A DNA stretch of 64,000 nucleotides, from positions 480,001 through 544,000 of the forward strand of contig CBDBKE010000004.1 of the NCBI GenBank assembly GCA_965206645.1, in the 5' to 3' direction. This DNA is from Terriglobia bacterium. GTDB taxonomy: Bacteria > Acidobacteriota > Terriglobia > JAJPHL01 > JAPKYU01. Within the stretch, counting starts at the first letter, position 1. Each line of letters begins with the position of its first letter. Under the pieces are notes generated by a model. The model was not told the DNA's origin. It saw only the letters and a list, made by a program, of their open reading frames with translations, and searched no databases. Of the stretch, positions 9,232 to 44,122 are shown piece by piece. The position numbers and the translations under genes were made by a program.

Positions 9232-9237
9232 CTGATT

Positions 9238-11429: not shown

Positions 11430-12340
11430 AACACCGAATTTTTACCGGAGCGGTGGTCATCCCGCTTCTGATCGTGCTGACCACCACGCCCGCCTACGCC
11501 ATCTTCGGCTCGATCCTGGCGGGCATTCAACGGGCGCAGATGATCATCAATCAGGGCGTCCAGATTTACGAGGCGCAGATCGCCAAGCTGACGATGGACA
11601 CCCAATTGACCGAACTGACGGACCAGTTCTCACACTTGAAAGATCAGGCGCTCGGAAGCGTCGGCGCGCTCACCGATCCGTTCACCGACCTGGCATCGGT
11701 CCCGACGCGGTTCATCGGCGTGGGCCTATCGTGGAAAAGCGATTTTACCGGCGTGGCGGCGGAGCTTGCGTCGTCAGTCGAACAGATGGGCGAAACCGGC
11801 AAGAGCTTTGCCCAATCCTGGCGCGGGCGGCTCACCGCCGCCGACACGGTGACCGAGAGCGACATCCTCACTCTGTACGGGGACTATCGCCCGGAGATCG
11901 CGGCGCAGGCGGCCAGCGGCTACCTCGCGGCGCGGGAGGAAGGCGACAAGCGCCTGGTGCTCGATCACGCAATGAGCGACGCGGCGGCGAATCTCATGAT
12001 TGCGGCGCGAGACGCCGTGGAGTCCTACGAAGGACTACGAAACAACACCAATACTTCCAACACCGCCCTTGCTCAATCACAAGTGGCCGGGACGGTGACG
12101 CAAGGAAACCTCACCGCTGCTATGGCGCAGTTGATGGCATTCCAGGCGGCGAAGGAGGCGGCAGAGGATTACGAACGCGAGATTGCTCGGCGGGAGGCGC
12201 TGGCTCGATGGATCGAGACGCAGCGCCGCGCCGAGATCACCTTCGCGGCGCAACAGGCCGGGCTCGATGCCCGCCGCGATTCCATGCGCGAAGGGTTGCT
12301 CTTTCGGATTCACCCGGCCTACGGCGGGAACGGCCAGTAA
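11426..12340 (+). CDS. VirB5/TrbJ-like secreted helical protein
   Basis: Signal peptide ending PAYA, Q/A-rich helices, position directly before virB6. Confidence 0.6.
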   Translation: MKHRIFTGAVVIPLLIVLTTTPAYAIFGSILAGIQRAQMIINQGVQIYEAQIAKLTMDTQLTELTDQFSHLKDQALGSVGALTDPFTDLASVPTRFIGVGLSWKSDFTGVAAELASSVEQMGETGKSFAQSWRGRLTAADTVTESDILTLYGDYRPEIAAQAASGYLAAREEGDKRLVLDHAMSDAAANLMIAARDAVESYEGLRNNTNTSNTALAQSQVAGTVTQGNLTAAMAQLMAFQAAKEAAEDYEREIARREALARWIETQRRAEITFAAQQAGLDARRDSMREGLLFRIHPAYGGNGQ

Positions 12341-12352
12341 TCCATTTCGCCG

Positions 12353-13351
12353 ATGCAGATTCAACTCGATCCCAACATCCCGGCCAACCTTTCCCCGGAA
12401 CAACTGAGGGACTTCAAGTCGTTCCTCGATGTCGCTCTGGATGGCCTGACCGCGGCGGCGGCCGGGGAGGTTTTCGCCACCGGAAACGCGCTCTTCGGGG
12501 GGCTGGCTCTCATCGTTGTGGTGTTGAAGGGGCTGAAGATCGCCTTTAGCGGAAACATTCAGCCGTGGGAGCTGGTGCGGGTCGTCATCGGGCTATGGAT
12601 ACCGTGGGTGATGTTGCAGTTCTACACCACCACCATTCCGGGAATGGCTTTCACCTTCCCAGGGATGATTGCGGCGGGCGGAAATTGGCTTCACGAACTG
12701 CTGATCGGCGATGCCGTCTATTCGATGCAGACCGAGCTTGGCAACCTCATTCGCTCCCTTGCGGCGAACCAGGCAGCCCAGGCGCAAGCGGGGAACACGC
12801 TCGGCCTACTCACCGGCGGGATTCATGCCGCGATAACGGCGGTTGCGGGGTTTGCAATGTTTGTGTTCGTAGTCCTTATGCTCCTTCTGTTGGCCGCCGT
12901 CACCTACGCTCAAGTGATCTGGGCTCAAATCGCGCTTGCCATCCTCATCATCTTGGGGCCGATCTTCATTCCGTTTCTGGTGTTCGAGCCGCTGTCGTTT
13001 CTGTTCTGGGGATGGTTCCGGGCGATGATTACCTACTCGCTTTATGCCGTGATCGCCGGAGCGGTGCTGCGCGTGTTCTCCGCTGTCGGAATCTCCTACA
13101 TCACGAGCTTGGGGAATGCCAACCTGGACATGCAGAGCTTCATAGACGTGGGCTTGTGGATGATCGCCGTCGTGCCCTTGTTTGTCGCCGGGATGCTGGC
13201 AAGCCTCAAGTGCGGGGAGCTCGCCTCGATGCTCGTTACCAGCACAGGAGCAGCCGGCAGCGGCCTCATGGGGATGGCAACCACGGCGGGAACGGTTGCG
13301 GCCACCGGAGGCGCGGCGGCGGCGAAGATCGGAGCAGGGGGGATTAAATGA
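12353..13351 (+). CDS. virB6: VirB6/TrbL
   Basis: Polytopic; LGPIFIPFLVFEPLSFLFWGW; G/A-rich tail. Confidence 0.85.
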   Translation: MQIQLDPNIPANLSPEQLRDFKSFLDVALDGLTAAAAGEVFATGNALFGGLALIVVVLKGLKIAFSGNIQPWELVRVVIGLWIPWVMLQFYTTTIPGMAFTFPGMIAAGGNWLHELLIGDAVYSMQTELGNLIRSLAANQAAQAQAGNTLGLLTGGIHAAITAVAGFAMFVFVVLMLLLLAAVTYAQVIWAQIALAILIILGPIFIPFLVFEPLSFLFWGWFRAMITYSLYAVIAGAVLRVFSAVGISYITSLGNANLDMQSFIDVGLWMIAVVPLFVAGMLASLKCGELASMLVTSTGAAGSGLMGMATTAGTVAATGGAAAAKIGAGGIK

Positions 13352-14025
13352 GCGAACCCGAAACCGCCGGCAAAGATGCCGGAGCCGAGTACGCCGAAAT
13401 ATGGGGCGAAGCCATCCACTCCAACCGTCATCTACGGGTGCTCTCCGTCGGGTTGGGAATCGGGTTGCTCTTGCTCATCATCGTCGTCATTCGTATTGTG
13501 TCGGTTGATCCGCCCCGCCCCATCGTCGTGAGGGTCGATGAAGTAGGCCGGGCCGAGGCCATCGCCTACGAGGCGATGGAGGCCCAGGCCGACCCGCTGG
13601 ACTCCACCACCAAATACTTTCTCAATCGCTTCATTTACGACTTCTACTCGCGGCGGCGGGCCACGGTCCAAGAGAACTGGTCCCGCAGTCTGCGCTTCCT
13701 GACCACGGAGCTTGCCAACGCAAGTTTCCGGGCCGAGAGTCAGAATATCGCTCTTCTCGCGGCGGGAGCGGCGCGGGATGAACTGCAAGTGGATCGCGTC
13801 GTTTTGAGGATTCAGGCCAATCCCCAGGAGCCGCACAGCGCGACGGCAGATTTTGACCTGGTGCGGATGGTGATGGCAAACGAAGTAAGCCGGGAGCGCT
13901 GGACCCTCTCGCTGCAATTCCAGTTCCTCGATGAGATCCCGCCGGACCTGATCGTCCACAACCCTATGGGGATCGTTATCAGCTATCTGCAAGGGGATCG
14001 GGCGATAGTCACCGGCGACCAATGA
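13348..14025 (+). CDS. virB8: VirB8/TrbF
   Basis: Single TM; PIVVRVDEVG; C-terminal HNPMGIVI. Confidence 0.82.
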   Translation: MSEPETAGKDAGAEYAEIWGEAIHSNRHLRVLSVGLGIGLLLLIIVVIRIVSVDPPRPIVVRVDEVGRAEAIAYEAMEAQADPLDSTTKYFLNRFIYDFYSRRRATVQENWSRSLRFLTTELANASFRAESQNIALLAAGAARDELQVDRVVLRIQANPQEPHSATADFDLVRMVMANEVSRERWTLSLQFQFLDEIPPDLIVHNPMGIVISYLQGDRAIVTGDQ

Positions 14026-14966
14026 TGATCGAGCACTTGCGCGGACGCGAAACAGCACTGGAAGCGCTCGGCTGGACCGGGCCGGAGGCGGAGTGGATCG
14101 CGCTGGTGTGTCTGCATAGCGGCGTCTTCACCCGCGCTCAATTCTGTCACTACTTCAATACAGATCGGAAGCAGGCGCTTCGCTTTGTAAAGGCATTGAT
14201 TGACCGCCGGGCGGCGGTCGAAAGCGATCATGTAACGTTCAACGGCGGCGGGCGGACGTGCCGGATATCGAACAAGCCGATCTATCGGGCGCTGGGAGTC
14301 GAGAACATCCGCCACCGGCGCAAGGCCCATCCGCCGGTTGTGATGCGGCGGCTGCTCTCGTTGGATTTCGTTCTGGAACATCCGGGCATGAACTGGCTCC
14401 CCGCCGAGCCGGAGAAGGTCGCGTTTTTTGACGGGCTCGGCCTATCGCGGCGGCTGATCCCGCGACGGATTTACTACGGCGCTGTGGGAGCGCAGAAGCG
14501 CTACTTTGCGCTCAAACTTCCCCTGGCCAGTGACGCTGAAACCGTCATCTTCGCCTACGTCGATCCGGGCCACCAAACGGATCGGGAGTTGCACTCCTGG
14601 GGAGCCGCGCATGGGCCGCTTTGGGATGCGCTTCGCAAAAAGGGGCGGCAGGTCCGGGTGATCGGGATTGCGGCGGAAAACGAAACCGTGGATCGGACGG
14701 CGCGGGTGCTCCGCGTGTGGGCCGCAGCCCCCGCGAAGGAGACCGGAGAGGGGCGGACGTTGGCGGAGGAAATCAAGAGGATCGACACCGCACTGAGAAC
14801 CAATGATCCGATAGTCCTGGCCGAGTACGGGGGATTCAACGCGGCAATGAAAAAAGGAGCGGAACTCGAAAGTCTCCCGGAGGCAAAAGTGACGGAAGGG
14901 GTCTCGATTGACGACTATTCGACGTGGCGGGCCACCCGGTTTGCGGCGCGAGACGAAGGCGGATGA
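14022..14966 (+). CDS. Gene X: wHTH-containing hypothetical protein, candidate origin-binding protein
   Basis: WIALVCLHSGVFTRAQF..wHTH..RRLLSLDFVL..FAYVD. Coupled to virB8, conserved in copy 2, followed by a repeat array. Confidence 0.6.
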   Translation: MMIEHLRGRETALEALGWTGPEAEWIALVCLHSGVFTRAQFCHYFNTDRKQALRFVKALIDRRAAVESDHVTFNGGGRTCRISNKPIYRALGVENIRHRRKAHPPVVMRRLLSLDFVLEHPGMNWLPAEPEKVAFFDGLGLSRRLIPRRIYYGAVGAQKRYFALKLPLASDAETVIFAYVDPGHQTDRELHSWGAAHGPLWDALRKKGRQVRVIGIAAENETVDRTARVLRVWAAAPAKETGEGRTLAEEIKRIDTALRTNDPIVLAEYGGFNAAMKKGAELESLPEAKVTEGVSIDDYSTWRATRFAARDEGG

Positions 14967-14993
14967 AAAGAGCGCACAAACCCGGGAGTTTTT

Positions 14994-15072
14994 GTGCCAC
15001 TGAGGACCGCATGTTAAGTGCCACGCGCTCGGAGTGGGGGGTGTGGCACGATTCTAGCTAAAGGTGCGGCAA
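14994..15072. repeat. Four iteron-like TGCC(A/G)C sites, two direct then two inverted, ~23-24 bp apart
   Basis: GTGCCAC at 14994 and 15018, GTGGCAC at 15043, TGCGGCA at 15065; equivalent array at 25170-25243. Confidence 0.6.
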
Positions 15073-15155
15073 AACCACATTCCTTTATGTCTCTCATTCC
15101 GCTGTGTTTCTCCCCTGCTAATCGGACTCACCCGCGCCGATCCAGGAAAATCGGG

Positions 15156-15259
15156 GAGGACGATAGCGACCCCCCGAAAACCGGGGGGGCATGTGGCCCC
15201 GATAGCGGCGCGCTGTTCCACGCCTCTATCCGGCCCCATGCGGGGTCGCTATCGTCCTC
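15156..15259. other. Branched inverted-repeat structure upstream of virD4 (oriT/ssDNA-origin or RNA leader candidate)
   Basis: 18-bp IR GAGGACGATAGCGACCCC / GGGGTCGCTATCGTCCTC enclosing nested stems; conserved with compensatory changes at 24981-25085. Confidence 0.65.
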
Positions 15260-15325
15260 ATTGATCCCTGCGGGAAGGCTCGGAGCAGCCCCCAACGGGG
15301 GCGCTGACGGAAGGGAGACGGAGCT

Positions 15326-17437
15326 ATGAAATGGCGGCGCTTCATTCCTCACATCCTTCTGTTTTTCGGCGGCCTGGGGTACGCCCTGTGGAGCTTTGTC
15401 CGCCGTCCCTTCCCCATGCTTGGGGATAGTCCCTTGCTCGATCTCATGGACTATCACACCCCCAACTTCTACGGCTGGGTGATGCTCTGGTACTACGCTT
15501 CGCCTTTCGTCGCCGTCATGCTCGCGGGGCTCATTCTCATGTCCGTCTGGAAGGTCTGGCTGGAATCGCGGCGGCGGGATTTCGCGCCCTTTGGGGCGCT
15601 CCCGACCTGGCCGCTTTCACCCCGGCAAACGGCCCCGGCCATCGTAATCGGTGAGGTTCATCATCCGGTGGAGGCGCGCGAGATTTTCAATCCCTCCTGG
15701 CTCACGATCCCGGAGCGTGGGCTGTATACCGGCGTGGCGATTTTCGGAGCCGTCGGGTCCGGGAAGACCTCGGCTTGTATGCACCCCTTCGCCCGCCAGC
15801 TTCTCGGCTGGCAAGCCGAGAATCCACAGATGCGGGCGGCGGCGCTCATGCTTGAAGTCAAGGGAGATTTCTGTCACGACATCCGCCAAATCCTGATCGA
15901 GGCGGGCCGGGGAAAAGACTACATCGAGCTTGGCATGAATGGGCGCTGGCAATGGAACCCGCTCTCGGCCTGGTGGCTCGATTCCTACTCGCTGGCCTAC
16001 ACCGTTTCGAGCCTTCTCAACCAGCTGTTCGGGAAGGGCAAGGAACCCTTCTGGCAGCAAGCCTATACCAACCTGGTCCGCTGGATCATTGAGCTTCACC
16101 GGATATTCCCGGAACGGTGGGTGACGTTGCAGCAGGTCTACCGCTGCGCCATCGACCCGGACCTTTTCGCAGCCAAGATCGAGCAAGCCGAAGCGTGGAG
16201 CGACGAGTTGAACAAGGGAACCGTTTTCGTTCGGGCCGATCTAGTAGGCGAGAACAAAATGAAGCTGGCTGAATGGGTATGGGAAGGGACGCTGGGCCGG
16301 GAGGAACAGCAAGCCGTCTACAGCCGCGCCTTGCTCAACAAACTGGACGAGCTCAAGCTGACCTACCGGGTGGTTTGGGACCCCGGACCCGGAGACGAAG
16401 TGAGAGAACGGGTGGAGGCGGTGAAGCGCTGGTTTGTCAACGACTGGCAAACGCTGGATAACAAAATCAAGTCCTCGATTGTGGAGGGGGTTTCGGTATT
16501 CCTTGCCATGTTCGACATGCCGGATGTGGCGAAGGTGTTTTGCCCGCCCGCGCCGGAAGTCCCCGACGATCCACAAGCCATTGCAATTCAGGCCAGGGCC
16601 GCGAAGCGGGCCGGGGAAGAAGCCCGGGAGCCGAACAAGGAGCCGGAGGCCGCGCCCACGTCGATTCCTTCCGTCGAAGAGGAACGAATCGCCGGGCCGC
16701 GACACCTGCCCTCGCTCTATGAATTGATCGAAAGGGGCAAGGTGCTGGCCTTGAATATGCCCGCCGGATCGAACCCGGCGCTGGCCCGCGCCGTGGGCGT
16801 GATGCTCAAGAACGCCTGGCTACAGGCGCTTCTCATGCGCCCGACCAAGATGAAGGAGTCGCCGGGCGTCTACTTCCGCCCGGCGGTTTTCATCTGCGAC
16901 GAGTATCAGGCGTTTGCTTCGGTGGGCGAGGACGATCCATCGGGCGATGAAAAATCCTTTGCGCTAACCCGGCAATGCCGCTGCATCCCGATTGTCGCCA
17001 CTCAATCCATTTCCTCGCTCCGATCTGTGTTGGGAAGCTCGGAAGCATGGCGGTCGCTGTTGCAGACGCTCCGCACACGGATTTTCCTGTCTCTCAGCGA
17101 CGACGCCAGCGCCAAGATTGCAAGCGAAATGTGCGGGCAGGTGGCGAAGATCAAGGGATCCTACACGATCAGCGAGACCTCCAAGCGGGCGGAAGTCTCC
17201 CCGCTGTCAGGCCGCGCCGGTGGAGGCGGCGGCAGCATCGGCGCGACCAAGTCTTTCCGGGAGCAACGCGAGGCCGTGTTTCACCCGCGAGACTTCACGC
17301 TGCTCTCGAACTGTCAAGCGATCTGTCTGCCCTATGACGGGGCGCAGTCGCTTGAACCGCGCCGGGTCTATCTCAAGCCTCACTATCTGCCCCTCGATTA
17401 TTCCTATTGGAGAGCGAAGGAGGCGGGCAGATTATGA
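15326..17437 (+). CDS. virD4: VirD4/TraD-type coupling protein
   Basis: Two N-terminal TMs; GAVGSGKT; LEVKGD; WNPL; FICDEYQ; IVATQS. Confidence 0.88.
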   Translation: MKWRRFIPHILLFFGGLGYALWSFVRRPFPMLGDSPLLDLMDYHTPNFYGWVMLWYYASPFVAVMLAGLILMSVWKVWLESRRRDFAPFGALPTWPLSPRQTAPAIVIGEVHHPVEAREIFNPSWLTIPERGLYTGVAIFGAVGSGKTSACMHPFARQLLGWQAENPQMRAAALMLEVKGDFCHDIRQILIEAGRGKDYIELGMNGRWQWNPLSAWWLDSYSLAYTVSSLLNQLFGKGKEPFWQQAYTNLVRWIIELHRIFPERWVTLQQVYRCAIDPDLFAAKIEQAEAWSDELNKGTVFVRADLVGENKMKLAEWVWEGTLGREEQQAVYSRALLNKLDELKLTYRVVWDPGPGDEVRERVEAVKRWFVNDWQTLDNKIKSSIVEGVSVFLAMFDMPDVAKVFCPPAPEVPDDPQAIAIQARAAKRAGEEAREPNKEPEAAPTSIPSVEEERIAGPRHLPSLYELIERGKVLALNMPAGSNPALARAVGVMLKNAWLQALLMRPTKMKESPGVYFRPAVFICDEYQAFASVGEDDPSGDEKSFALTRQCRCIPIVATQSISSLRSVLGSSEAWRSLLQTLRTRIFLSLSDDASAKIASEMCGQVAKIKGSYTISETSKRAEVSPLSGRAGGGGGSIGATKSFREQREAVFHPRDFTLLSNCQAICLPYDGAQSLEPRRVYLKPHYLPLDYSYWRAKEAGRL

Positions 17438-18399
17438 GCGCCGCGAGTGGACTGGAACACCTGAAACCGTTTCTACCGGGATTGGAAAGCGCCCTGGAAG
17501 ATTCCGAAGTCAGCGAGATCATGATTAACGGGCCGTTCAATGTCTGGGTCGAGCGGGCCGGGCGGTTGACGGCACATGACGCGCCGGACCTGGACGAATC
17601 GGCCCTGTTGCGGGCGGCCATCCACATCGCCCGTCCTTTGGGCTTGGATCCGGCGAGCTCGCCGATTGTCGATGCGCGCCTGGACGACGGCTCGCGGGTT
17701 GCCATCTGTGTCCCGCCCGCGAGCCCCACGGTGGCGATCACCATGCGGCGCTTTGGCAAGCGGGCGTTCTCGGCGGATGATCTCGTGAAGCAAGGCGCAC
17801 TTCCTAAAAACGTGCGTGCGGAAGCGGAGCGGGTGTTGCGCTCGCGCCGCAACATCCTGGTTTCAGGCGGCACCGGATCGGGCAAGACCACCCTGCTTAA
17901 CGCACTTATTGAATTGCTTCCCGACGACGAGCGTATTGTCGCCATCGAGGACACCCTGGAGCTTCGCATCGAGCGCTCCAATTGCGTCCGCTTCGAGGCT
18001 CGCGGATTACAGGAAGGAGCGGTGACGATCCGGGACTTGGTACGCCACGCGCTGCGTCACCGCCCGGATCACATCGTCGTGGGCGAGGTGCGCGGCGGGG
18101 AGGCGGCGGACCTGCTGCAAGCCTTGAATACCGGACACGGCGGCTCGCTCACCACCGTACACGCCAACAACGCCGAGTCGGCCTTGTCGCGCATCGCCAG
18201 TTGCGCCATGCAGGGCGGCGGTGAGCTTCCCTGGGAGGTCACATGCCGAGGCGTGGTGGACGGCATCGCTATGGTGATTCACATGACGCGCCGCGAGGGA
18301 CGCCGCTTCGTGGAGGAGGCCTTGCTCGTGGAAGGTTATGACGCACCACAGAACCGCTGGCTCATCGAGCCAATCCGGAGGGAACACGATAACGGATGA
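17434..18399 (+). CDS. virB11: VirB11/TrbB/CpaF-type ATPase
   Basis: VSEIMING, VSGGTGSGKTT, IEDTLEL, LRHRPDHIVVGEVRG, NTGHGG. Confidence 0.9.
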   Translation: MSAASGLEHLKPFLPGLESALEDSEVSEIMINGPFNVWVERAGRLTAHDAPDLDESALLRAAIHIARPLGLDPASSPIVDARLDDGSRVAICVPPASPTVAITMRRFGKRAFSADDLVKQGALPKNVRAEAERVLRSRRNILVSGGTGSGKTTLLNALIELLPDDERIVAIEDTLELRIERSNCVRFEARGLQEGAVTIRDLVRHALRHRPDHIVVGEVRGGEAADLLQALNTGHGGSLTTVHANNAESALSRIASCAMQGGGELPWEVTCRGVVDGIAMVIHMTRREGRRFVEEALLVEGYDAPQNRWLIEPIRREHDNG

Positions 18400-18542
18400 A
18401 GACCCTCAAGGACTCCACCCCTGATCTCGCCGAAGCCCTGCATCGTGATGCCACCGGCGAGTGGGACTAACGACAAAATCGCAACAGCCTCTCCGCGCGG
18501 AGTTCCCCCTTGTGGTCTTGTATGGAGAGTAGGGAGGGAAAG

Positions 18543-18758
18543 ATGAGCCTTGACGGAGAAGCGCCAGATGCCCCGATCACGGTGAAGGCCGCCGCCCGCT
18601 TCTTGGGGGTTAGCCCCTCGCTGGTGTATGCTTACGTCGAGCGAAAGCAGATTCCCCATCTCCGCGTGATGGGGCGAAGCATCCGGTTTCTCAAATCGGA
18701 TTTGGAGCCCTTCCGCGCAAGCTTCAGGCAGGAGGTGGAGAATGGCAAGACCGAGTAA
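18543..18758 (+). CDS. Excisionase-family HTH protein
   Basis: TVKAAARFLGVSPSLVY..IPHLRV.GRSIRF; overlaps the int start. Confidence 0.85.
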   Translation: MSLDGEAPDAPITVKAAARFLGVSPSLVYAYVERKQIPHLRVMGRSIRFLKSDLEPFRASFRQEVENGKTE

Positions 18759-19869
18759 GCATGATGGTGTCATCTATCGCCGGAACGACAGCAACATTTG
18801 GTGGATGCGCTATCGGGATAAGGCCGGGCGGCGTCGCCTGGAATCAACACGAACGGAGGACTGGCAAGAAGCCCAACGGTGCCTACGCGAGCGGCTTCAG
18901 GCCAGAGACAATAATACCCTGGCCGCCCTTCGCCGGGGTCAACGGGTTACTTTCGGGGAATGGGCCGACTTTTTCCTGGTCAACTACTCTCAGCCCCCGA
19001 TTCGGGCCGAGAAGACTCACGAGGCAAACGAATGCGCGCTCAAGAGTCTGCGGCCAGTGTTCGGACCGATGAAGATAACCGAGATCGGAGCTGAGCAAAT
19101 CGAGCTTCATCTCCGCCAACGGCTGCAACAGCACAAGCGAGTCCGTCGTCGGAGTGGTGTCGTCGAACTCGGGCTTCTGAAACCCACCACCGTGCATCAA
19201 GAGCTTCGAGTTCTCCGGCGTATCTTTAGTGTTGCAGTGAAGAAGAAGCTCTGCCCGGCCAACCCCTGCGCCGGCGTGGAGTTTCCGGTGATCCTGAAAG
19301 GTTTCTTCCGACCCCACTACATGACCTGGTCCGAGCAGCAGAAAATCGAGCGGCATGCTCCCGCCTATCTCAGGAACATAATTCGGATCATCACGGAAAC
19401 GGGGCTCCGGGTCTATAAAGAGCTTGCCGCTATGCGCAAGGATCGAGTAGACCTCGCCAACAAGGTAGTCTTCGTGGAAGATTCGAAGACACCGACCGGG
19501 GTAGCCGAGGTTCCTTTGACCGGCATGGCTACTGAAGCCTTCCGTAACCAGATCGAATTAGCGGGACCCGGCCCATGGCTCTTTCCCAGCCCGCAGAACC
19601 CAATTGGGCATCAGACTAACTTCAGAAAGACCTGGGAAAGAGCACTCCGCAGAGCCGGAGTTCCCTACTTCCGCTTATACGACCTGCGCTCCACCCACGC
19701 TACGCGCCTTAGCGCCGGCGGCGTTGCGGACGAGTGGGTGACCCAGCTTCTTCGTCAGACGGACGCCAAAGTCTTCAAGAAGTATTCTCAGATGAAGCTC
19801 CAGATGAAGCGGGATGCGTTGACAAAACTCAATCACCGTGCAAATGAAACTGCAGCCGTTGGGTTTTGA
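18742..19869 (+). CDS. Tyrosine integrase of ICE copy 1
   Basis: Arm-binding N-terminus (WWMRYRD); ETGLR, SKT, YDLRST, KKY; adjacent to the tRNA. Confidence 0.9.
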   Translation: MARPSKHDGVIYRRNDSNIWWMRYRDKAGRRRLESTRTEDWQEAQRCLRERLQARDNNTLAALRRGQRVTFGEWADFFLVNYSQPPIRAEKTHEANECALKSLRPVFGPMKITEIGAEQIELHLRQRLQQHKRVRRRSGVVELGLLKPTTVHQELRVLRRIFSVAVKKKLCPANPCAGVEFPVILKGFFRPHYMTWSEQQKIERHAPAYLRNIIRIITETGLRVYKELAAMRKDRVDLANKVVFVEDSKTPTGVAEVPLTGMATEAFRNQIELAGPGPWLFPSPQNPIGHQTNFRKTWERALRRAGVPYFRLYDLRSTHATRLSAGGVADEWVTQLLRQTDAKVFKKYSQMKLQMKRDALTKLNHRANETAAVGF

Positions 19870-19921
19870 TACGGCACATCAACAGTTGTAGGGTTTTGAT
19901 ACGGTTTTGATACGGTTTTGA
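19863..19921 (+). repeat. Integrase arm-type repeats GTTTTGATAC x3 plus one partial
   Basis: Copies at 19863, 19893 and 19904; partial at 19915. Confidence 0.8.
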
Positions 19922-19956
19922 GGTTCAGGGATGGGCAAATGCAATCGAGACCGATT

Positions 19957-19969
19957 TAACTCATTGATT
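19957..19969 (-). promoter_or_regulatory. IHF-type binding site in the att arm
   Basis: Reverse complement AATCAATGAGTTA matches WATCAANNNNTTR exactly. Confidence 0.65.
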
Positions 19970-19983
19970 TCGAAGGACTGGAC

Positions 19984-20060
19984 TGGTGGGCGACAGAGGA
20001 CTCGAACCTCTGACCTCCTGCGTGTGAAGCAGGCGCTCTAACCAACTGAGCTAGTCGCCC
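19984..20060 (-). tRNA. tRNA-Val(CAC)
   Basis: GGGCGAC acceptor stem, TAGCTCAGTTGGTTAGAGC D-arm, CCTGC-TTCACAC-GCAGG anticodon arm, GGTTCGAGTCC T-arm, encoded CCA; 77 nt. Confidence 0.97.
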
Positions 20061-20137
20061 CTTGGAGTTACTTCCTTTCTTCCAAACCACTTGCAGATTC
20101 TGTTCCATCGGCGAAATCGCTTAAACCGGCCCCAATT

Positions 20138-20190
20138 GTATCAAAACTGTATCAAAACCCCAGTTTTTTGGGCCCGGAGTGTATCAGAAC
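20138..20190 (-). repeat. Integrase arm-type repeats, mirror of 19863-19913
   Basis: GTATCAAAAC at 20138 and 20149; GTATCAGAAC at 20181. Confidence 0.8.
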
Positions 20191-21298
20191 CCTGCTCCTC
20201 ACCCGCCTGACGGTTTAGACGCCGTAGCGCTTCCCGTTTCATCCCCAGTTTCATCTGTGAGTACTTCTTGAACACCTTCGCATCACTTTGCCGCAGGAGC
20301 TGGGTCACCCACTCGTCTGCCACGCCTCCCGCGCTTAAACGGGTTGCATATGTCGAGCGCAGATCGTAGATCCGGAAGTACGGAACGCCCGCGCGTTCCA
20401 ACGTTGTGCGCCAGATCTTCTTGAAGCTCGCCTGGTAGCCGCGCTGATTCCGACCGCTCGGAAACAACCACGGCCCTGGTCCAGCAAGCCAGAGCTGGTC
20501 GCGGAAGGCCTCTACCGCCAAGTCCGTCAGTGGCACCTCCCCCACGCCGGTGGGGGTTTTCGAGTCAGGTATCCAGACCACTGCGTTTGCCAGGTCGACC
20601 TGGTCTTTCCGCATCGGTGCAAGCTCCTTGTAGACCCGTAATCCGGTTTCGGTGATGATCCGGATCAGGTTCCGCAAGTACGGAGGTGCGTGCAACTCAA
20701 TCCGCTGCTGTTCCGACCACGGCATGTAGTGCGGCCGAAACAACCCCTTGACCGTGACCGGGAACTCCGCTGAGTTGCAAGGGTTGGCCGCGATGAACTT
20801 CTTCTTCACCGCGACATTCAACACCCGGCGCAACACGCGAAACTCCTGGTGCACGGTCGCCGGCTTCAGCAGCCCGAGCTCCCGATACCCCAGCCGTGTC
20901 CTGACTCGCTTCTGTTGCCGAAGCCGCCAGCGCAAGTACCCCTCAACATCCTCGGCGCCGATGGCGGACAACATTTGCGGTCCGAACACGGGCTTGAGTT
21001 GCTTCACCGCGTTTTGGTTGGCTGCGTGCGTCTTCCTACTCCGCAAGGGCGGCTGGGAATAGTGCTCCAGGAAAAAGTCCGCCCACTCGTGAAACCTGAG
21101 TTGTTGGCCGCGCCGAACGAGCGCGAGCACGTTCTCATCGCGTGCCTGCAATCGTTCACGTAGCCGTGTTTGGGCTTCCTGCCAGTCACTTGTCTCTGTG
21201 GATTCGAGGCGCCGGGTGCCGTCTCGATCCCAGTACCGCATCCACCAGAAACGGCCGCGCCGGTACAGGACGCCGTCATGCTTTTTCGGTCGTGCCAT
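20141..21298 (-). CDS. Tyrosine integrase of ICE copy 2
   Basis: Paralogue of 18742-19869 with the same motifs; clearly more diverged than the T4SS genes. Confidence 0.9.
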   Translation of the reverse strand: MARPKKHDGVLYRRGRFWWMRYWDRDGTRRLESTETSDWQEAQTRLRERLQARDENVLALVRRGQQLRFHEWADFFLEHYSQPPLRSRKTHAANQNAVKQLKPVFGPQMLSAIGAEDVEGYLRWRLRQQKRVRTRLGYRELGLLKPATVHQEFRVLRRVLNVAVKKKFIAANPCNSAEFPVTVKGLFRPHYMPWSEQQRIELHAPPYLRNLIRIITETGLRVYKELAPMRKDQVDLANAVVWIPDSKTPTGVGEVPLTDLAVEAFRDQLWLAGPGPWLFPSGRNQRGYQASFKKIWRTTLERAGVPYFRIYDLRSTYATRLSAGGVADEWVTQLLRQSDAKVFKKYSQMKLGMKREALRRLNRQAGEEQGSDTLRAQKTGVLIQF

Positions 21299-21491
21299 TC
21301 ACCACCTCCTGTTGAAACGTGGCGCGAAAGGCCGAAAGCTCCGATCGTAAAAACCGGATGTTCCGGCCCATCACGCGGAGATGGGGAATCTGCCGCCGCT
21401 CGACCCAAGCATACACGGTCTGCGGACTCACGCCAAGAAACCGGGCAGCCTCCTTCACCGTCAACGGTACCTCGTGGGCCAAAGCCTGCAT
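21276..21491 (-). CDS. Excisionase-family HTH protein
   Basis: LTVKEAARFLGVSPQTVYAWVERRQIPHLRV. Confidence 0.85.
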   Translation of the reverse strand: MQALAHEVPLTVKEAARFLGVSPQTVYAWVERRQIPHLRVMGRNIRFLRSELSAFRATFQQEVVNGTTEKA

Positions 21492-21837: not shown

Positions 21838-22803
21838 TTATCCGTCATCGTGTTCCCTCCAGATCGGCTTGATGAGCCAGCGGTTCTGTGGCGCGTCGTA
21901 GCCCTGGACGAGCAGCGCTTCCTCCACGAAGCGACGTCCCTCTCGCCGTGTCATGTGAATCACCATAGCGATGCCGTCCACCACGCCCCGGCAGGTGACT
22001 TCCCAGGGAAGCTCCCCGCCGCCCTGCATGGCGCAACTGGCGATGCGCGACAAGGCCGATTCGGCGTTGTTGGCGTGTACGGTGGTGAGCGAGCCGCCGT
22101 GTCCGGTGTTCAAGGCTTGCAGCAGGTCGGCGGCCTCGCCGCCCCGGACCTCGCCCACCACGATGTGATCCGGGCGGTGCCGCAAGGCGTGGCGCACCAG
22201 GTCGCGGATCGTCACCGCGCCGGTTTCCAGGCCCCGAGCCTCGAAACGGACGCAATTAGAGCGCTCGATGCGAAGCTCCAGGGTGTCCTCGATGGCGACG
22301 ATGCGCTCGTCATCGGGTAGTAGTTCGATCAGCGCATTGAGCAGGGTGGTCTTGCCCGATCCGGTGCCGCCTGAAACCAGGATGTTGCGGCGCGAGTGCA
22401 ACACCCGCTCCGCTTCCGCTCGCACGTCTTCGGGGAGTGCGCCTTGCGTCACGAGATCATCCGCCGAGAACGCCCGCTTGCCAAAGCGCCGCATGGTGAT
22501 CGCCACCGTGGGGCTCGCGGGCGGAACACAGATGGCAACCCGCGATCCGTCGTCCAGGCGCGCATCGACAATCGGCGAGCTCGCCGGGTCCAAGCCCAAA
22601 GGACGGGCGATGTGGATGGCCGCCCGCAATAGGGCCGATTCGTCCAGGTCCGGCGCGTCATGTGCCGTCAACCGCCCGGCCCGCTCGACCCAGACATTGA
22701 ACGGCCCGTTAATCATGATCTCGCTGACTTCGGAATCTTCCAGGGCGCTTTCCAATCCCGGTAGAAACGGTTTCAGGTGTTCCAGTCCACTCGCGGCGCT
22801 CAT
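21838..22803 (-). CDS. virB11: VirB11-type ATPase (copy 2)
   Basis: Near-identical to 17434-18399. Confidence 0.9.
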   Translation of the reverse strand: MSAASGLEHLKPFLPGLESALEDSEVSEIMINGPFNVWVERAGRLTAHDAPDLDESALLRAAIHIARPLGLDPASSPIVDARLDDGSRVAICVPPASPTVAITMRRFGKRAFSADDLVTQGALPEDVRAEAERVLHSRRNILVSGGTGSGKTTLLNALIELLPDDERIVAIEDTLELRIERSNCVRFEARGLETGAVTIRDLVRHALRHRPDHIVVGEVRGGEAADLLQALNTGHGGSLTTVHANNAESALSRIASCAMQGGGELPWEVTCRGVVDGIAMVIHMTRREGRRFVEEALLVQGYDAPQNRWLIKPIWREHDDG

Positions 22804-24911
22804 AATCTGCCCGCCTCCTTCGCTCTCCAATAGGAATAATCGAGGGGCAGATAGTGAGGCTTGAGGTAGACACGTCGCGGTTCAAGCGACTGCGACCCGT
22901 CATAGGGCAAACAGATCGCTTGACAGTTCGAGAGCAGCGCGAAATCTCGCGGGTGAAACACGGCCTCGCGTTGCTCCCGGAAAGACTTGGTAGCGCCGAT
23001 GCTGCCCCCGCCTCCACCGGCGCGGCCCGAGAGCGGGGAGACTTCCGCCCGCTTGGAGGTCTCGCTGATCGTGTAGGATTCCTTGATCTTCGCCACCTGC
23101 CCGCACATTTCGCTTGCAATCTTGGCGCTGGCGTCGTCGCTGAGAGACAGGAAAATCCGTGTGCGGAGCGTCTGCAACAGCGACCGCCAAGCTTCCGAGC
23201 TTCCCAACACGGAGCGCAGCGAGGAAATGGATTGAGTGGCGACAATCGGGATGCAGCGGCATTGCCGGGTCAGCGCAAAGGATTTTTCATCGCCCGATGG
23301 ATCGTCCTCACCCACCGAAGCGAAGGCTTGATATTCGTCACAGATAAAGACGGCGGGCCGGAAATAGACCCCCGGCGACTCCTTCATCTTGGTCGGGCGC
23401 ATGAGAAGCGCCTGTAGCCAGGCGTTTTTGAGCATCACGCCCACGGCGCGGGCCAGCGCCGGGTTCGATCCGGCGGGCATGTTCAAGGCCAGCACCTTGC
23501 CCCTTTCGATCAATTCATAGAGCGGGGGAAGGTGTCGCGGCCCGGCGATTCGTTCCTCTTCGACGGAAGGAATCGACGTGGGCGCGGCCTCCGGCTCCTT
23601 ATTCGGCTCCCGGGCTTCTTCCCCGGCCCGCTTCGCGGCCCTGGCCTGAATTGCAATGGCTTGTGGATCGTCGGGGATTTCCGGCGCATCCGGACAAAAC
23701 ACCTTCGCCACATCCGGCATATCGAACATGGCAAGGAATACCGAAACCCCCTCCACAATCGAGGACTTCACTTTGTTGTCCAGCGTTTGCCAGTCGTTGA
23801 CAAACCAGCGCTTCACCGCCTCCACCCGTTCTCTCACTTCGTCTCCGGGTCCAGGGTCCCAAACCACCCGGTAGGTCAGCTTGAGCTCGTCCAGTTTGTT
23901 GAGCATGGGGCGGGAGTAGGCGGCCCGCACTTCTTCCGTTCCCGGTATGTCTTTCCATAGCCATTCAGCCAAGGTCATGATGTGGGCTTGGTATACGACC
24001 TCCGGAATGAAAACCGTGCCTTTGTTCAACTCGTTGCTCCACGCTTCGGCTTGCTCGATCTTGGCTGCGAAAAGGTCCGGGTCGATGGCGCAGCGGTAGA
24101 CCTGCTGCAACGTCACCCACCGCTCCGGGAAGATCCGGTGAAGCTCGATGATCCAGCGGACCAGATTGGTATAGGCTTGCTGCCAGAAGGGTTCCTTGCC
24201 CTTGCCGAATAGCTGGTTGAGAAGGCTGGAAACGGTGTAGGCCAGCGAGTAGGAATCGAGCCACCAGGCCGAGAGCGGGTTCCATTGCCAGCGCCCATTC
24301 ATCCCCAGCTCGATGTAGTCTTTTCCCCGGCCCGTCTCGATCAGGATTCGCCGGATATCGTGACAGAAATCTCCCTTGACTTCGAGCATGAGCGCTGCCG
24401 CCCGCATCTGTGGATTCCCTGCTTGCCAGCCGAGAAGCTGCTTGGCGAAAGGGTGCATACAAGCCGAAGTCTTGCCGGACCCGACGGCCCCGAAGATCGC
24501 CACGCCGGTATACAGGCCACGCTCCGGGATGGTGAGCCAGGAGGGATTGAAAATCTCCCGCGCCTCGACCGGGTGATGAACCTCCCCGATCACGATGGCC
24601 GGGGACTTTTGTTGGGGTGAAAGCGGCCAGGTTGGAAGGGCGCCGAAGGGTGCAAAATCCCGCCGCCGCGCTTCCAGCCAGACCTTCCAAACGGACATGA
24701 GAATGAGCCCCGCGAGCATGACGGCGAAGAAAGGCGAAGCGTAGTACCAGAGCATCACCCAGCCGTAGAAGTTCGGGGTGTGGTAGTCCATGAGATCGAG
24801 CAAGGGACTATCCCCAAGCATGGGGAAGGGACGGCGGACAAAGCTCCACAGGGCGTACCCCAGACCGCCGAAAAACAGAAGGATGTGAGGAATGAAGCGC
24901 CGCCATTTCAT
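22800..24911 (-). CDS. virD4: VirD4 coupling protein (copy 2)
   Basis: Same length and motifs as 15326-17437. Confidence 0.88.
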   Translation of the reverse strand: MKWRRFIPHILLFFGGLGYALWSFVRRPFPMLGDSPLLDLMDYHTPNFYGWVMLWYYASPFFAVMLAGLILMSVWKVWLEARRRDFAPFGALPTWPLSPQQKSPAIVIGEVHHPVEAREIFNPSWLTIPERGLYTGVAIFGAVGSGKTSACMHPFAKQLLGWQAGNPQMRAAALMLEVKGDFCHDIRRILIETGRGKDYIELGMNGRWQWNPLSAWWLDSYSLAYTVSSLLNQLFGKGKEPFWQQAYTNLVRWIIELHRIFPERWVTLQQVYRCAIDPDLFAAKIEQAEAWSNELNKGTVFIPEVVYQAHIMTLAEWLWKDIPGTEEVRAAYSRPMLNKLDELKLTYRVVWDPGPGDEVRERVEAVKRWFVNDWQTLDNKVKSSIVEGVSVFLAMFDMPDVAKVFCPDAPEIPDDPQAIAIQARAAKRAGEEAREPNKEPEAAPTSIPSVEEERIAGPRHLPPLYELIERGKVLALNMPAGSNPALARAVGVMLKNAWLQALLMRPTKMKESPGVYFRPAVFICDEYQAFASVGEDDPSGDEKSFALTRQCRCIPIVATQSISSLRSVLGSSEAWRSLLQTLRTRIFLSLSDDASAKIASEMCGQVAKIKESYTISETSKRAEVSPLSGRAGGGGGSIGATKSFREQREAVFHPRDFALLSNCQAICLPYDGSQSLEPRRVYLKPHYLPLDYSYWRAKEAGRL

Positions 24912-24980
24912 AGAGTCCGTTTCCCTTCTTTCATCGCCCCGGCTGGGGGCGCTCTTCCGAGCCTTCCCGCAGGGATAAAT

Positions 24981-25243
24981 GAGGACGATAGCGACCCTCA
25001 TGGGGGGGCAGGAACGGTGTGCCGCAACGCACCGCTGCTGGGGCCACATGATCCCCCACTTTTCGGGGGGGTCGCTATCGTCCTCCCCGATTTTCCTGGA
25101 TCGGCGCGGGTGAGGCCGCTCGACAGGTGATAACCACAGCGGAATGAGGGAGATGGGAGAATGTAGTTTTGCCGCATCTCTTGGCTGAATTTTGCCGTAC
25201 CCTCCCTCTGTGACTGCGGCACCCTGGATAGGGCGTTGCGGCA
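24981..25243. other. Copy-2 branched IR structure plus four TGCCG(C/T)A sites
   Basis: IR at 24981 / 25069-25085; repeats at 25170, 25193, 25215 and 25237. Confidence 0.6.
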
Positions 25244-25292
25244 TGAAAAAAACCTTCAATTTCCTCTCTCCGTTCCGGCCTTCGTGCTGCTT

Positions 25293-26234
25293 TCATCCGG
25301 TTTCCTCCAGGACCGCAAACCGGGCGGCCCGCCACGTCGAGTAGTCGTCAATCGAGACCCCTTCCGTCAGCTTCGCTTCGGGGAGACGTTGAAGCTCCAC
25401 CGACCGTCTTCCGGCTGCCGCGAATCCCCCATACTGCGCCAGAAATTCCCGGTCCTTGTGAGTCATCGCGTCGTCAATCGCCTTGATTTCCTGCCGCACC
25501 GTCCACCCTTCCCCGGTCTCCTTCGGGGCGGTCGCGGCCCACACCCGGAGCACCCGCGCCGTCCGATCCACGGTTTCATTCTCCGCTGCGATCCCGATCA
25601 CCCGGACCTGTCGGCCTTTCTTACGCAGCGCATCCCAAAGCCGCCCATGCGCGGCTCCCCAGGAGTGCAACTCCCGATCCGTTTGGTGGCCCGGATCGAC
25701 GTAGGCGAAGGTGACGGTTTCGGGGTCCGCCGCAATAGGAAGTTTGAGCGCAAAGTAGCGTTTCTGCGCTCCCACAGCACCGTAGTAAATCCGTCGCGGG
25801 ATCAGTCGCCGCGAGAGGCCGAGCTTTTCAAAGAACGCAACCTTCTCCGACTCGGCGGGGAGCCAGTTCATGCCCGGATGTTCCAATACGAAATCGAGCG
25901 AGAGAAGGCGGCGCATCACCACCGGCGGGCGGGCTTTGCGACGGTGGCGGATGTTCTCGACCCCCAGCGCCCGGTAGATCGGCTTGCTCGATATCCGGCA
26001 CGGCCTCGCCCCCCCGGAGAACATCAAGTTTTCATTCTCTACCGCTGCCCGCCGTACAACCAACGCTTGGACGAAGCGGTGCGCCCGCTTGCTCTCCGCA
26101 TCAAAGTAGAAACAGAACTGCGGGCGAGTGAAGACGCCGCTGTGAAGGCACACCAGCGCGATCCACTCCGCTTCCCGGCCCGTCCAACCGAATTGTTCCA
26201 GTGCTGTTTCCCTTCCCCGCAAGTGCTCGATCAT
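25293..26234 (-). CDS. Gene X wHTH protein (copy 2)
   Basis: Paralogue of 14022-14966. Confidence 0.6.
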   Translation of the reverse strand: MIEHLRGRETALEQFGWTGREAEWIALVCLHSGVFTRPQFCFYFDAESKRAHRFVQALVVRRAAVENENLMFSGGARPCRISSKPIYRALGVENIRHRRKARPPVVMRRLLSLDFVLEHPGMNWLPAESEKVAFFEKLGLSRRLIPRRIYYGAVGAQKRYFALKLPIAADPETVTFAYVDPGHQTDRELHSWGAAHGRLWDALRKKGRQVRVIGIAAENETVDRTARVLRVWAATAPKETGEGWTVRQEIKAIDDAMTHKDREFLAQYGGFAAAGRRSVELQRLPEAKLTEGVSIDDYSTWRAARFAVLEETG

Positions 26235-26908
26235 TGGTCGCCTGTGACTATCGCCCGATCCCCTTGCAGATAGCTGATAACGATCCCCATAGGGTTGTGG
26301 ACGATCAGGTCCGGGGGGATCTCATCGAGGAACAGGAATTGCAGCGAGAGGGTCCAGCGTTCCCGGCTTACTTCGTTTGCCATCGCCATCCGCACCAGGT
26401 CAAAATCGGCCGTCGCGCTGTACGGCTCCTGGGGATTGGCCTGAATCCGCAAAACGACGCGATCCACTTGCAGTTCATCCTTTGCCGCTCCTGCCGCGAG
26501 AAGAGCGATATTTTGACTCTCGGCGCGAAACGAGGCGTTGGCGAGCTCCGTGGTCAGGAAGCGCAGACTGCGGGACCAGTTCTCTTCGACCGTGGCCCGC
26601 CGCCGCGAGTAGAAGTCGTAAATGAAGCGATTGAGAAAGTATTTGGTGGTGGGGTCCAGCGGATCGGCCTGGGCCTCCATCGCTTCATAGGCGATGGCCT
26701 CGGCCCGGCCTACTTCATCGACCCTCACGACGATGGGGCGGGGCGGATCGACCGACACAATGCGAATGACGACGATGATGAGCAAGAGCAAGCCGATTCC
26801 CAACCCGACGGAGATCACCCGTAGATGACGGTTGGAGTGGATGGCCTCGCCCCATATTTCGGCGTACTCGGCTCCGGCGTCTTTGGCCTTGGTTCCGGGT
26901 TCGCTCAT
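26231..26908 (-). CDS. virB8: VirB8 (copy 2)
   Basis: Paralogue of 13348-14025. Confidence 0.82.
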   Translation of the reverse strand: MSEPGTKAKDAGAEYAEIWGEAIHSNRHLRVISVGLGIGLLLLIIVVIRIVSVDPPRPIVVRVDEVGRAEAIAYEAMEAQADPLDPTTKYFLNRFIYDFYSRRRATVEENWSRSLRFLTTELANASFRAESQNIALLAAGAAKDELQVDRVVLRIQANPQEPYSATADFDLVRMAMANEVSRERWTLSLQFLFLDEIPPDLIVHNPMGIVISYLQGDRAIVTGDQ

Positions 26909-27903
26909 TTAATTCCTCCCGCGCCCGCCTTTGCCGCCGCCGCGCCCCCGGTGGCCGCAACCGTTCCCGCCGTGGTCGCCATTCCCATGAGGCCGCTCCC
27001 CGCCGCTCCTGTGCTGGTAACGAGCATCGAGGCAAGCTCTCCGCACTTGAGGCTTGCCAGCATCCCGGCGACAAACAAGGGCACGACGGCGATCATCCAC
27101 AAGCCCACGTCTATGAAGCTCTGCATGTCCAGGTTGGCATTCCCCAAGCTCGTGATGTAGGAGATTCCGACAGCGGAGAAGACCCGGAGCACCGCTCCGG
27201 CGATCACGGCATAAAGCGAGTAGGTAATCATCGCCCGGAACCATCCCCAGAACAGAAACGACAGCGGCTCGAACACCAGAAACGGAATGAAGATCGGCCC
27301 CAAGATGATGAGAATGGCAAGCGCGATTTGAGCCCAGATGACTTGAGCGTAGGTGACGGCGGCCAACAGAAGGAGCATAAGGACTACGAACACAAACATT
27401 GCAAACCCCGCAACCGCCGTTATCGCGGCATGAATCCCGCCGGTGAGTAGGCCGAGCGTGTTCCCCGCTTGCGCCTGGGCCGCCTGGTTCGCCGCGAGGG
27501 AGCGAATGAGGTTGCCAAGCTCGGTCTGCATCGAATAGACGGCATCGCCGATCAGCAGTTCGTGAAGCCAATTTCCACCCGCCGCAATCATCCCTGGGAA
27601 GGTGAAAGCCATGCCCGGAATGGTGGTGGTGTAGAACTGCAACATCACCCACGGTATCCACAACCCAATGACGACCCGAATCAGTTCCCACGGCTGAATG
27701 TTCCCGCTAAAGGCGATCTTCAGCCCGTTCAACACCACAACGATGAGCGCCAGACCCCCGAAGAGCGCGTTTCCGGTGGTGAAAACCTCCCCGCCCGCCG
27801 CCGTCGTCAGTCCATCCAGAGCGACATCGAGGAACGATTTGAAGTCCCTCAGTTGTTCCGGGGAAAGGTTGGCCGGGATGTTGGGATCGAGTTGAATCTG
27901 CAT
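26905..27903 (-). CDS. virB6: VirB6 (copy 2)
   Basis: Paralogue of 12353-13351. Confidence 0.85.
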   Translation of the reverse strand: MQIQLDPNIPANLSPEQLRDFKSFLDVALDGLTTAAGGEVFTTGNALFGGLALIVVVLNGLKIAFSGNIQPWELIRVVIGLWIPWVMLQFYTTTIPGMAFTFPGMIAAGGNWLHELLIGDAVYSMQTELGNLIRSLAANQAAQAQAGNTLGLLTGGIHAAITAVAGFAMFVFVVLMLLLLAAVTYAQVIWAQIALAILIILGPIFIPFLVFEPLSFLFWGWFRAMITYSLYAVIAGAVLRVFSAVGISYITSLGNANLDMQSFIDVGLWMIAVVPLFVAGMLASLKCGELASMLVTSTGAAGSGLMGMATTAGTVAATGGAAAAKAGAGGIK

Positions 27904-27915
27904 CGGCGAAATGGA

Positions 27916-28830: not shown

Positions 28831-28833
28831 TTT

Positions 28834-31031: not shown

Positions 31032-31037
31032 AATCAG

Positions 31038-43987: not shown

Positions 43988-44122
43988 GCCCGATTTGACA
44001 CCCCGCACCTGTCTCTGGACGTCGCCAGCCTACTCCGAACCACTGTGGCGATGTCGGGAGAATTGAGGGAGTTTACATCACAACCTGCCCATTAGAATCA
44101 ACTACTTGATATCTCTTTGGTG

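Follow-up and report, generated by a model that had tools for sequence, protein, structure and literature searches.

Evidence that two related integrative elements occupy one tRNA-Val(CAC) gene of a Terriglobia bacterium with opposite polarity

How can two integrases share one tRNA gene, and what then remains of the host gene? The question is raised by a 64-kb stretch of a Terriglobia genome (G000:C4:480001-544000, where G000 is the source genome and C4 one of its four contigs; hereafter the window). Its only tRNA gene, a tRNA-Val(CAC) found with ARAGORN at 19984-20060 on the minus strand, has a tyrosine integrase gene converging on it from each side. Among the 50 tRNAs that ARAGORN finds in the whole of G000 it is the only one of type Val-CAC. 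Our answer, to which we give a probability of about 0.87, is that two related integrative and conjugative elements (ICEs) integrated into the anticodon stem-loop of this one gene with opposite polarity. ICE1, to the left, restores the 3′ part of the gene in the classical manner, and ICE2, to the right, restores the 5′ part.

Two elements with mirrored ends

The proteins of int1 (ICE1) and int2 (ICE2) are 72% identical over 369 amino acids, and both match the Phage_integrase domain (PF00589) above the curated cut-off (E 4e-16 and 2e-16). R221, K247, R314 and Y346, the putative catalytic residues, are invariant among the eight integrase paralogs of G000. The int2 frame is intact (385 amino acids), only its last codons overlapping the arm repeats, and the recombination core lies ~116 bp past its stop codon.

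Allowing at most one mismatch, the arm repeat GTTTTGATAC occurs six times in the window, always at the int1/tRNA/int2 junction, three copies per side in mirrored arrangement; shuffled sequences gave a mean of 1.66 copies and reached six in 1 of 100. An earlier reading of the window (the sequence-only reading) had described these arms as symmetric about the anticodon, and the coordinates agree: the inner repeats lie 112 bp (from 19913) and 113 bp (from 20138) from the middle anticodon base at 20025, and the outer ones 153 and 156 bp. The exact IHF-type consensus that it placed on the left arm (WATCAANNNNTTR, minus strand) is there as well, a consensus match and so a putative site; the window holds three exact matches where 0.53 are expected. 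Inside ICE2, at 44096-44111, two overlapping IHF-type consensus matches on opposite strands form a palindromic site.

A BLAST search of the genome with the tRNA gene located the far ends of both elements. The displaced 5′ fragment that the sequence-only reading had predicted is an exact copy of tRNA nucleotides (nt) 1-42 at C4:569032-569073 (42 nt, 100%, E 2e-17), 69 kb rightward at the far end of ICE2, where it stands behind the promoter-like box TGGTATAAT and the native upstream region. A copy of nt 28-77 lies at C4:433305-433354 (50 nt, 98%, E 7e-20). Both fragments are on the strand of the gene, the 3′ fragment downstream and the 5′ fragment upstream, as expected from the insertion of two circles. 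ICE1 (~67 kb) is bounded by the direct repeat of nt 28-77, with the host 3′ part of the tRNA now 66.7 kb off, and ICE2 (~69 kb) by the exact direct repeat of nt 1-42, whose borders at nt 1 and nt 42 are sharp, the flanks differing on each side. The stretch nt 28-42 is the only one common to the two repeats. Classical polarity, with the 3′ fragment displaced downstream, is found in ICE1 and not in ICE2. That ICE1 restores the 3′ half, as had been proposed, is supported by its repeat and by the one mismatch in it, at nt 63, which is T in the rebuilt gene and C in the displaced copy.

The distal (P) arms carry two GTTTTGATAC copies each, at G000:C4:433465-433485 in ICE1 and G000:C4:568901-568921 in ICE2. 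The ~130 bp from fragment to repeats aligns between the two elements and includes another WATCAANNNNTTR-type match, and the integrase-proximal (P′) ends likewise have arm repeats in common. The reconstructed attP has one layout in both elements: integrase, three arm repeats, spacer, tRNA-derived segment, ~100 bp and two arm repeats, all arm repeats running in one direction. What differs is the central segment: nt 1-42 in ICE2 and, in ICE1, nt 28-77 as its reverse complement. The stems CCTGC/GCAGG do not change when the strand is switched, so the 7-nt loop alone has its orientation to the arms reversed. The suggestion that the junction itself resembles an attP did not hold: it contains two P′-type arms in mirror orientation, while the reconstructed attPs have P′ and P in direct orientation. 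Cross-talk and co-excision of the two elements, raised in the same reading, may occur.

Table 1. Features of the window at and around the tRNA-Val(CAC) gene (window coordinates)
Feature	Position	Strand	Remark
tRNA-Val(CAC)	19984..20060	-	sole gene with this anticodon in the genome; element DNA on both flanks
int1, ICE1 tyrosine integrase	18742..19869	+	3′ end faces tRNA 3′ end (classical polarity)
int2, ICE2 tyrosine integrase	20141..21298	-	transcribed toward tRNA 5′ end (reversed polarity)
ICE1 integrase-proximal (P′) arm, three GTTTTGATAC copies	19863..19913	+	copies at 19863, 19893, 19904
ICE2 integrase-proximal (P′) arm, three GTTTTGATAC copies	20138..20190	-	20138, 20149, 20181; last with 1 mismatch; overlaps int2 end
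IHF-type consensus WATCAANNNNTTR in ICE1 P′ arm	19957..19969	-	exact match to consensus; putative site
tRNA nt 28-77, integrase-proximal copy of ICE1 repeat	19984..20033	-	50 nt, 98% match; part restored by ICE1
tRNA nt 1-42, integrase-proximal copy of ICE2 repeat	20019..20060	-	42 nt, 100% match; part probably restored by ICE2
Shared core, tRNA nt 28-42, anticodon stem-loop CCTGC-N7-GCAGG	20019..20033		overlap of both repeats; putative crossover site
ICE2 degenerate copy of family box	20079..20092	-	hexamer TGGAAG (TAGAAT in relatives)
ICE1 type IV secretion genes nearest int1	6808..18399	+	Pfam hits
ICE2 type IV secretion genes	21838..33164	-	equal-sized open reading frames, mirror order to ICE1
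ICE2 coupling protein	22803-25259	-	Pfam hit
ICE2 VirB4/TraG-P-loop ATPase	31041-33164	-	Pfam hit

Target sites and integrases in related genomes

Forty relatives were searched with 3 kb from either flank of the composite insertion (rightward from the 5′ stump, leftward from the 3′ fragment). In two genomes of the same family, G004 and G006, both flanks lie around one tRNA-Val(CAC), 375 and 283 bp apart; the same two flanks are 135.8 kb apart in G000. Half-occupied sites were found in the same genus. In G001 the right flank carries TGGTATAAT ~30 nt before a complete tRNA-Val(CAC), which is followed by an ICE1-like arm and integrase end, with no ICE2; as judged from this arrangement, G001 is in the state of ICE1 without ICE2. 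In G003 the same 42-nt stump is followed by an ICE2-like P arm, and the left flank has the 3′ fragment and then the arm of a different family member. By the sequence-only reading, its model would have been refuted if the 80 bp before the window tRNA matched the empty-site chromosome; they match none of the native upstream regions of G001, G004 and G006.

The displaced fragments in G000 and G003 carry C at position 63 (giving an A51/C63 mismatch), as does the native G006 gene, and the rebuilt G000 gene and the G001 gene carry T, a pattern that assigns at least nt 63-77 of the present gene to ICE1. The native tRNA-Val(CAC) of the lineage seems to carry this A51/C63 mismatch in its T-stem (G000:C4:433305-433354; G003 locus L014 at ~4372-4420; G006 locus L017 at 2516-2592), and the ICE1 copy brings a standard pair.

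For a survey of the integrase family, one genome per species was scanned with an alignment of the eight G000 paralogs. This yielded 79 loci, all titled as Acidobacteriota metagenome-assembled genomes. At 47 of the 79 (5′-type) the tRNA is on the strand of the integrase, 60-131 bp past its stop codon, so the expectation that Int2-like homologues sit upstream of tRNA 5′ ends was well founded; their targets are Pro-TGG, Val-CAC, Val-TAC, Arg-CCT, Arg-TCT and Ala-TGC. Another 21 (3′-type) have the tRNA on the opposite strand, 67-214 bp past the stop codon. No whole tRNA was called at the remaining 11, eight of which have a partial tRNA whose polarity agrees with that of the clade: nt 1-35 to 1-41 for the 5′-type, plus one copy cut by a contig end, and nt 28-77 and 40-77 for the 3′-type, plus one cut by a locus end. 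For two of the last three there is no sequence past the stop codon; in the third the integrase frame is broken. The partial copies that are not cut in this way, at six further integrases, end at nt 28-41.

Polarity is strongly clustered on a quick maximum-likelihood tree of 78 loci and seven G000 paralogs (L067, a broken frame of 185 amino acids, was dropped). Four changes of polarity are needed, at least three of them forced by well-supported branches. The int1 clade comprises 23 rows, 20 of them 3′-type and three without a whole tRNA called, and has no 5′-type member. A stump of nt 1-42/43 was sought in five genomes: it lies upstream on the same strand in two (180 and 188 kb away) and on another contig in one, while one genome has a 21-nt match only and one has none. 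Mirror pairs, in which an integrase of the same family converges from across the tRNA, were found at 5 of the 60 loci with at least 1.3 kb of sequence beyond the tRNA.

Distances from the last arm repeat to the anticodon are 113-116 bp at 19 of the 20 3′-type loci measured. Among 45 measured 5′-type loci they fall into classes that step by about one helical turn: 111-113 bp in 16, 121-124 bp in 26 and 100-102 bp in three. On this spacing evidence, the 112/113 symmetry at the junction is a property of the family, centred on the anticodon loop. The CCTGC/GCAGG stem is common to the 16 Val, Pro and Ala target tRNAs inspected, including the Ala-TGC of L030; the one Arg-CCT inspected has different stems, and Asp and other Arg targets lie outside this comparison. 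The 7-nt loop is most likely the overlap region, because the identity blocks end at nt 28-43 and the stem and the spacing are shared, and strand exchange would take place within it. For the 5′-type, the blocks end at nt 42 (Val-CAC), nt 40-42 (Val-TAC) and nt 42-43 (Pro-TGG).

Closer relatives of int2 show the tRNA part being exchanged. The integrase int3 (C4:1073550-1074623) is 99.7% identical to int2 over residues 28-385, and L030 is a 98% relative that lies upstream of a tRNA-Ala(TGC). One int2-type spacer is joined exactly at tRNA nt 1 to Val-CAC in ICE2, to Val-TAC at int3 and to Ala-TGC in L030 (G000:C4:1073427-1074623; L030 3560-3830), which suggests that the tRNA module is swapped exactly when the target changes. 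The swap at nt 1 could result from gene conversion, following an off-target integration, between the copy on the element and the host fragment that was displaced. The loci int3, int4, int9 and int10 carry nt 1-40 of Val-TAC and then a common non-tRNA sequence; these copies may be attP sites or tandem junctions, and those of int4 and int9 are inside an 11.8-kb block common to contigs C4 and C3.

G000 also has a second mirror pair (G000:C4:2047512-2050066) at a tRNA-Val(TAC) (C4:2048746-2048822), with int5 (65% identical) upstream of the 5′ end and int7 (52% identical) at the 3′ end. The likely native promoter of this gene, with a 42-nt stump, is on another contig (C3:689641-689682). Four integrases ~52% identical to int1 (C4:1015015-1016169, C4:1637947-1639101, C4:2047488-2048642 and C1:275409-276563) have near-identical arms up to the tRNA 3′ end; they sit at Ala-GGC, Pro-GGG, Val-TAC and a fragment broken inside the anticodon loop.

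An element that restores the 5′ part of a tRNA gene separates it from its promoter. In 45 of the 47 5′-type loci a TAnAAT hexamer occurs within 45 nt upstream of the tRNA, ending 17-19 nt before nt 1 in 43 of them, and in 41 of the 47 it is part of a longer conserved motif. The hexamer was found next to the tRNA, on either strand, in none of the 21 3′-type loci. It resembles the TGnTAnAAT upstream of native genes in G000, G001, G004, G005 and G006, and the conserved box is plausibly a portable, element-borne promoter. The exceptions include ICE2 (TGGAAG) and L030 (TGGAAT). Only 80 bases (20061-20140) separate the int2 stop from tRNA nt 1, and a consensus scan of 19700-20400 found neither a sigma-70 promoter-like nor a terminator-like site, in agreement with the earlier remark that no clear promoter lies there. 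Because the ICE2 copy of the box is degenerate, the tRNA in G000 may depend on this weak box or on read-through from int2; either way, the rebuilt gene would be expressed from ICE2. Of the proposal that ICE2 is a reversed variant which restores the 5′ half and supplies transcription, the first part stands, on the nt 1-42 stump and the relatives, and the second stays conjectural given the degenerate box.

As a weak hint, a 281-nt contig of metatranscriptome run X15 covers 20012-20292, from the int2 end through arm repeats and spacer into the tRNA 5′ part; DNA carry-over is possible, and its left end continues into the tRNA 3′ part of another organism. Near the far end of ICE2, at G000:C4:566775-568283 (locus L109 2776-4284, minus strand), is a gene whose 503-amino-acid product has a peptidase domain of the IrrE/ImmA type (PF06114). 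The displaced native tRNA promoter points in the direction of this gene and could drive transcription into it.

Mechanism and alternatives

In the mechanism that we propose, ICE1 would have arrived with an attP carrying nt 28-77 beside int1, and its insertion would have swapped the tRNA 3′ part and displaced the host copy. ICE2 would be a mirror variant, with homologous arms, the same repeats and the same arm-to-core spacing, but with nt 1-42 beside int2; its insertion would have exchanged the 5′ part, so that only a 42-nt stump stayed behind the host promoter. Given the palindromic stem CCTGC/GCAGG, the integrase would see the same core either way, and the 7-nt loop, as the overlap inverted relative to the arms, would set the direction of insertion. 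Three things can be read from the sequences themselves: the repeats, the sites that are empty or half occupied in relatives, and the pattern across the family.

Several observations weigh against this reading. The two copies of nt 1-42 are identical, so that no base difference marks the 5′ part as element-derived; its assignment to the element is based on the flanks and the relatives. The junctions at nt 1 in int3 and L030 are unexplained by a simple anticodon-loop crossover alone. The box of ICE2 is degenerate, and the promoter scan was empty. Insertion sequence (IS) load is very high, a 20-kb query finding hundreds of near-identical copies of ~1250, 1060, 700 and 450 bp on all four contigs, so rearrangement is common in G000. 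No excision product of ICE2 was seen; either element may be active at present. In public sequencing runs (20 rows with part of the stretch, six of them recorded as RNA; contigs of X1, X2, X15 and X17 compared over 18500-21500), no listed contig bridges int1, the tRNA and int2 in one piece, and no joint was reported. These pieces are short and the depth over the tRNA sums many organisms, so they decide neither contiguity nor transcription. As weak hints, one X1 contig ends at 20033 and continues into sequence like the ICE1 P arm, maybe an attP1 or a tandem junction of a related element, and an X17 contig (96% alike) starts at 20024, with another X17 loose end at 20022.

The alternative that survives best, though we consider it improbable, accepts the reversed polarity and places the ICE2 crossover elsewhere in the 42-bp identity, for example in the D-loop or the first tRNA bases. 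An identity block alone does not fix the exchange point, int3 and L030 join the ICE2 spacer to other 5′ parts exactly at nt 1, and upstream integration in the D-loop has been reported for Klebsiella arg2 islands (excerpt of bioRxiv 10.1101/2020.11.02.365908). The anticodon loop is favoured by the ends of the block, which in each of three tRNA species lie on the anticodon stem's 3′ strand, by the partial copies at four further 5′-type integrases uncut by a contig end, which stop at nt 35-41, by an arm-to-anticodon spacing equal to that of 3′-type relatives, and by the stem shared among the 16 Val/Pro/Ala targets inspected (the one Arg(CCT) inspected differs).

It is still less probable that int2 is an ordinary 3′-restoring integrase brought into mirror layout by a later rearrangement such as an inversion, with either IS copies or the two related elements as its partners. 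The abundance of IS copies would favour such an event, as would the scrambled and duplicated integrase loci (the 11.8-kb block of C3 and C4; the Val(TAC) pieces on two contigs). However, an inversion would leave inverted tRNA fragments, and the nt 1-42 copies are direct with sharp borders; the inversion model was rejected because of these direct repeats. In addition, the native promoter of G001 is joined directly to the tRNA, G003 has the same stump, and the layout recurs with fixed spacing in 47 of 79 loci of other genomes, 45 of the 47 with the box. That the junction is an assembly chimera of two separate tRNA-adjacent integrase loci is scarcely credible: contigs of four public runs do break inside the region without spanning all of it, and the arms and integrases are alike enough to mislead an assembler, but the far ends of both elements fit the junction, mirror pairs occur in five other assemblies, the assembly, with its hundreds of IS copies, still has contigs of 0.4-2.2 Mb, which suggests that long reads were used, and public contigs run from the ICE1 arm into the tRNA (X1, 19941-20027) and from the tRNA into int2 (X15, 20012-20292).

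Routes by which polarity might flip were also considered. Integration of a 3′-type attP in the wrong orientation was rejected: by inspection, the loop matches its own reverse complement at only 2 of 7 positions, and no intact gene would result. More speculatively, an element-borne whole tRNA gene might later have lost its 3′ part. A wider proposal, which we hold tentatively and at slightly less than even odds, is that a large clade of Acidobacteriota ICE integrases has repeatedly flipped its anticodon-loop polarity with the intasome geometry kept, only the 7-nt overlap and the tRNA module changing. Its 5′-restoring members would carry a portable tRNA promoter and be retargeted by module swap at nt 1; a doubly occupied single-copy tRNA would be wholly mobile DNA under element-controlled expression, with the native promoter reading into the far end of an element.

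Comparison with known systems, and gene content

The principle of 5′-half restoration is already known from the literature as excerpted here. The ‘symmetric sublocation’ (Williams 2002, as cited in PMC8371274 and bioRxiv 10.1101/2020.11.02.365908) is that of lambda-type integrases with crossover in the anticodon loop and restoration of the 3′ part. ICE1 fits these heterobivalent integrases fully, with its Phage_integrase domain, two-sided arms, palindromic stem, 7-nt loop and, as in the classical systems, an identity block from the anticodon stem to the CCA end. Unlike them, ICE2 has a block running from the anticodon stem to the 5′ end, inserts in reverse and severs the gene from its promoter. 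The excerpt of PMC8371274 states that in bacteria a recombinant tRNA gene retains its promoter ‘with very few exceptions’, that pTN3-like archaeal integrases use the tRNA 5′ half, and, citing Williams 2002, that such use is ‘seldomly encountered in bacteria’. In the pTN3/TKV4-type elements of Thermococcales, attB is likewise the tRNA 5′ half, with a shared stretch (the pTN3 site) of 41 bp, and the original promoter is lost (PMC5495485; PMC8371274). In those archaeal ‘suicidal’ integrases, as described in the same excerpts, the gene itself contains attP and is broken in two when the element integrates, whereas int2 stays whole.

A bacterial likeness is with islands upstream of arg2 in Klebsiella pneumoniae (integrase clade I.d), an insertion on the tRNA 5′ side that the authors give as an exception (excerpt of bioRxiv 10.1101/2020.11.02.365908). 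There the sublocation is the D-loop, unlike that favoured for ICE2, and the excerpt of that preprint describes no mirror partner, within-family flips or conserved box. The Islander algorithm filters out candidates in which a 5′ fragment follows the tRNA gene or a 3′ fragment precedes it, by which islands marked by an upstream 5′ fragment were foreseen (PMC4383910). This is a search rule and not the description of a family, and the excerpt of that paper mentions neither Acidobacteriota nor tRNA occupation on two sides. Within the literature searched, five features appear new: a bacterial ICE family in which the 5′-restoring state is dominant, repeated flips among close relatives that share arms and spacing, the conserved box that precedes the tRNA, exchange of whole tRNA modules with the joint exactly at nt 1, and tRNA genes occupied on both sides.

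The comparison of the two elements points to the 7-nt overlap, by its orientation to unchanged arms, as what decides which way an element inserts, and this bears on the design of integrases for oriented insertion. The textbook rule that the 3′ part is restored and the host promoter kept fails for most of the close family members surveyed, and island finders or tRNA annotators that assume it will misplace the ends of these elements. A single-copy tRNA can depend on a mobile element for its 5′ half and its transcription, tying host translation to carriage of the element. With both sides occupied, a composite element of ~136 kb could in principle excise and restore the native gene.

Both elements look conjugative from their gene content (Table 1). 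In ICE1, Pfam hits for VirB4/TraG-P-loop ATPase, CagX/VirB9, TrbI/VirB10, TrbL/VirB6, TraG-D_C coupling protein and a T2SSE (VirB11-like) ATPase fall on the open reading frames 6808-9228, 9238-10077, 10047-11426, 12353-13348, 15326-17434 and 17407-18396. No relaxase hit was obtained among the 23 proteins scanned, a minority of the open reading frames of both elements. The open reading frame at 2423-3559 encodes a DDE transposase (PF13701). The cargo of ICE2, all on the minus strand, includes an ArdC-like anti-restriction/metallopeptidase protein (35338-36450), a SNF2-type helicase beside a PLD-domain protein (44660-49626) and BREX-type defence genes for BrxL (56636-57769), PglZ (57762-60368) and an Eco57I/N6 methylase of 1145 amino acids (60501-63935).

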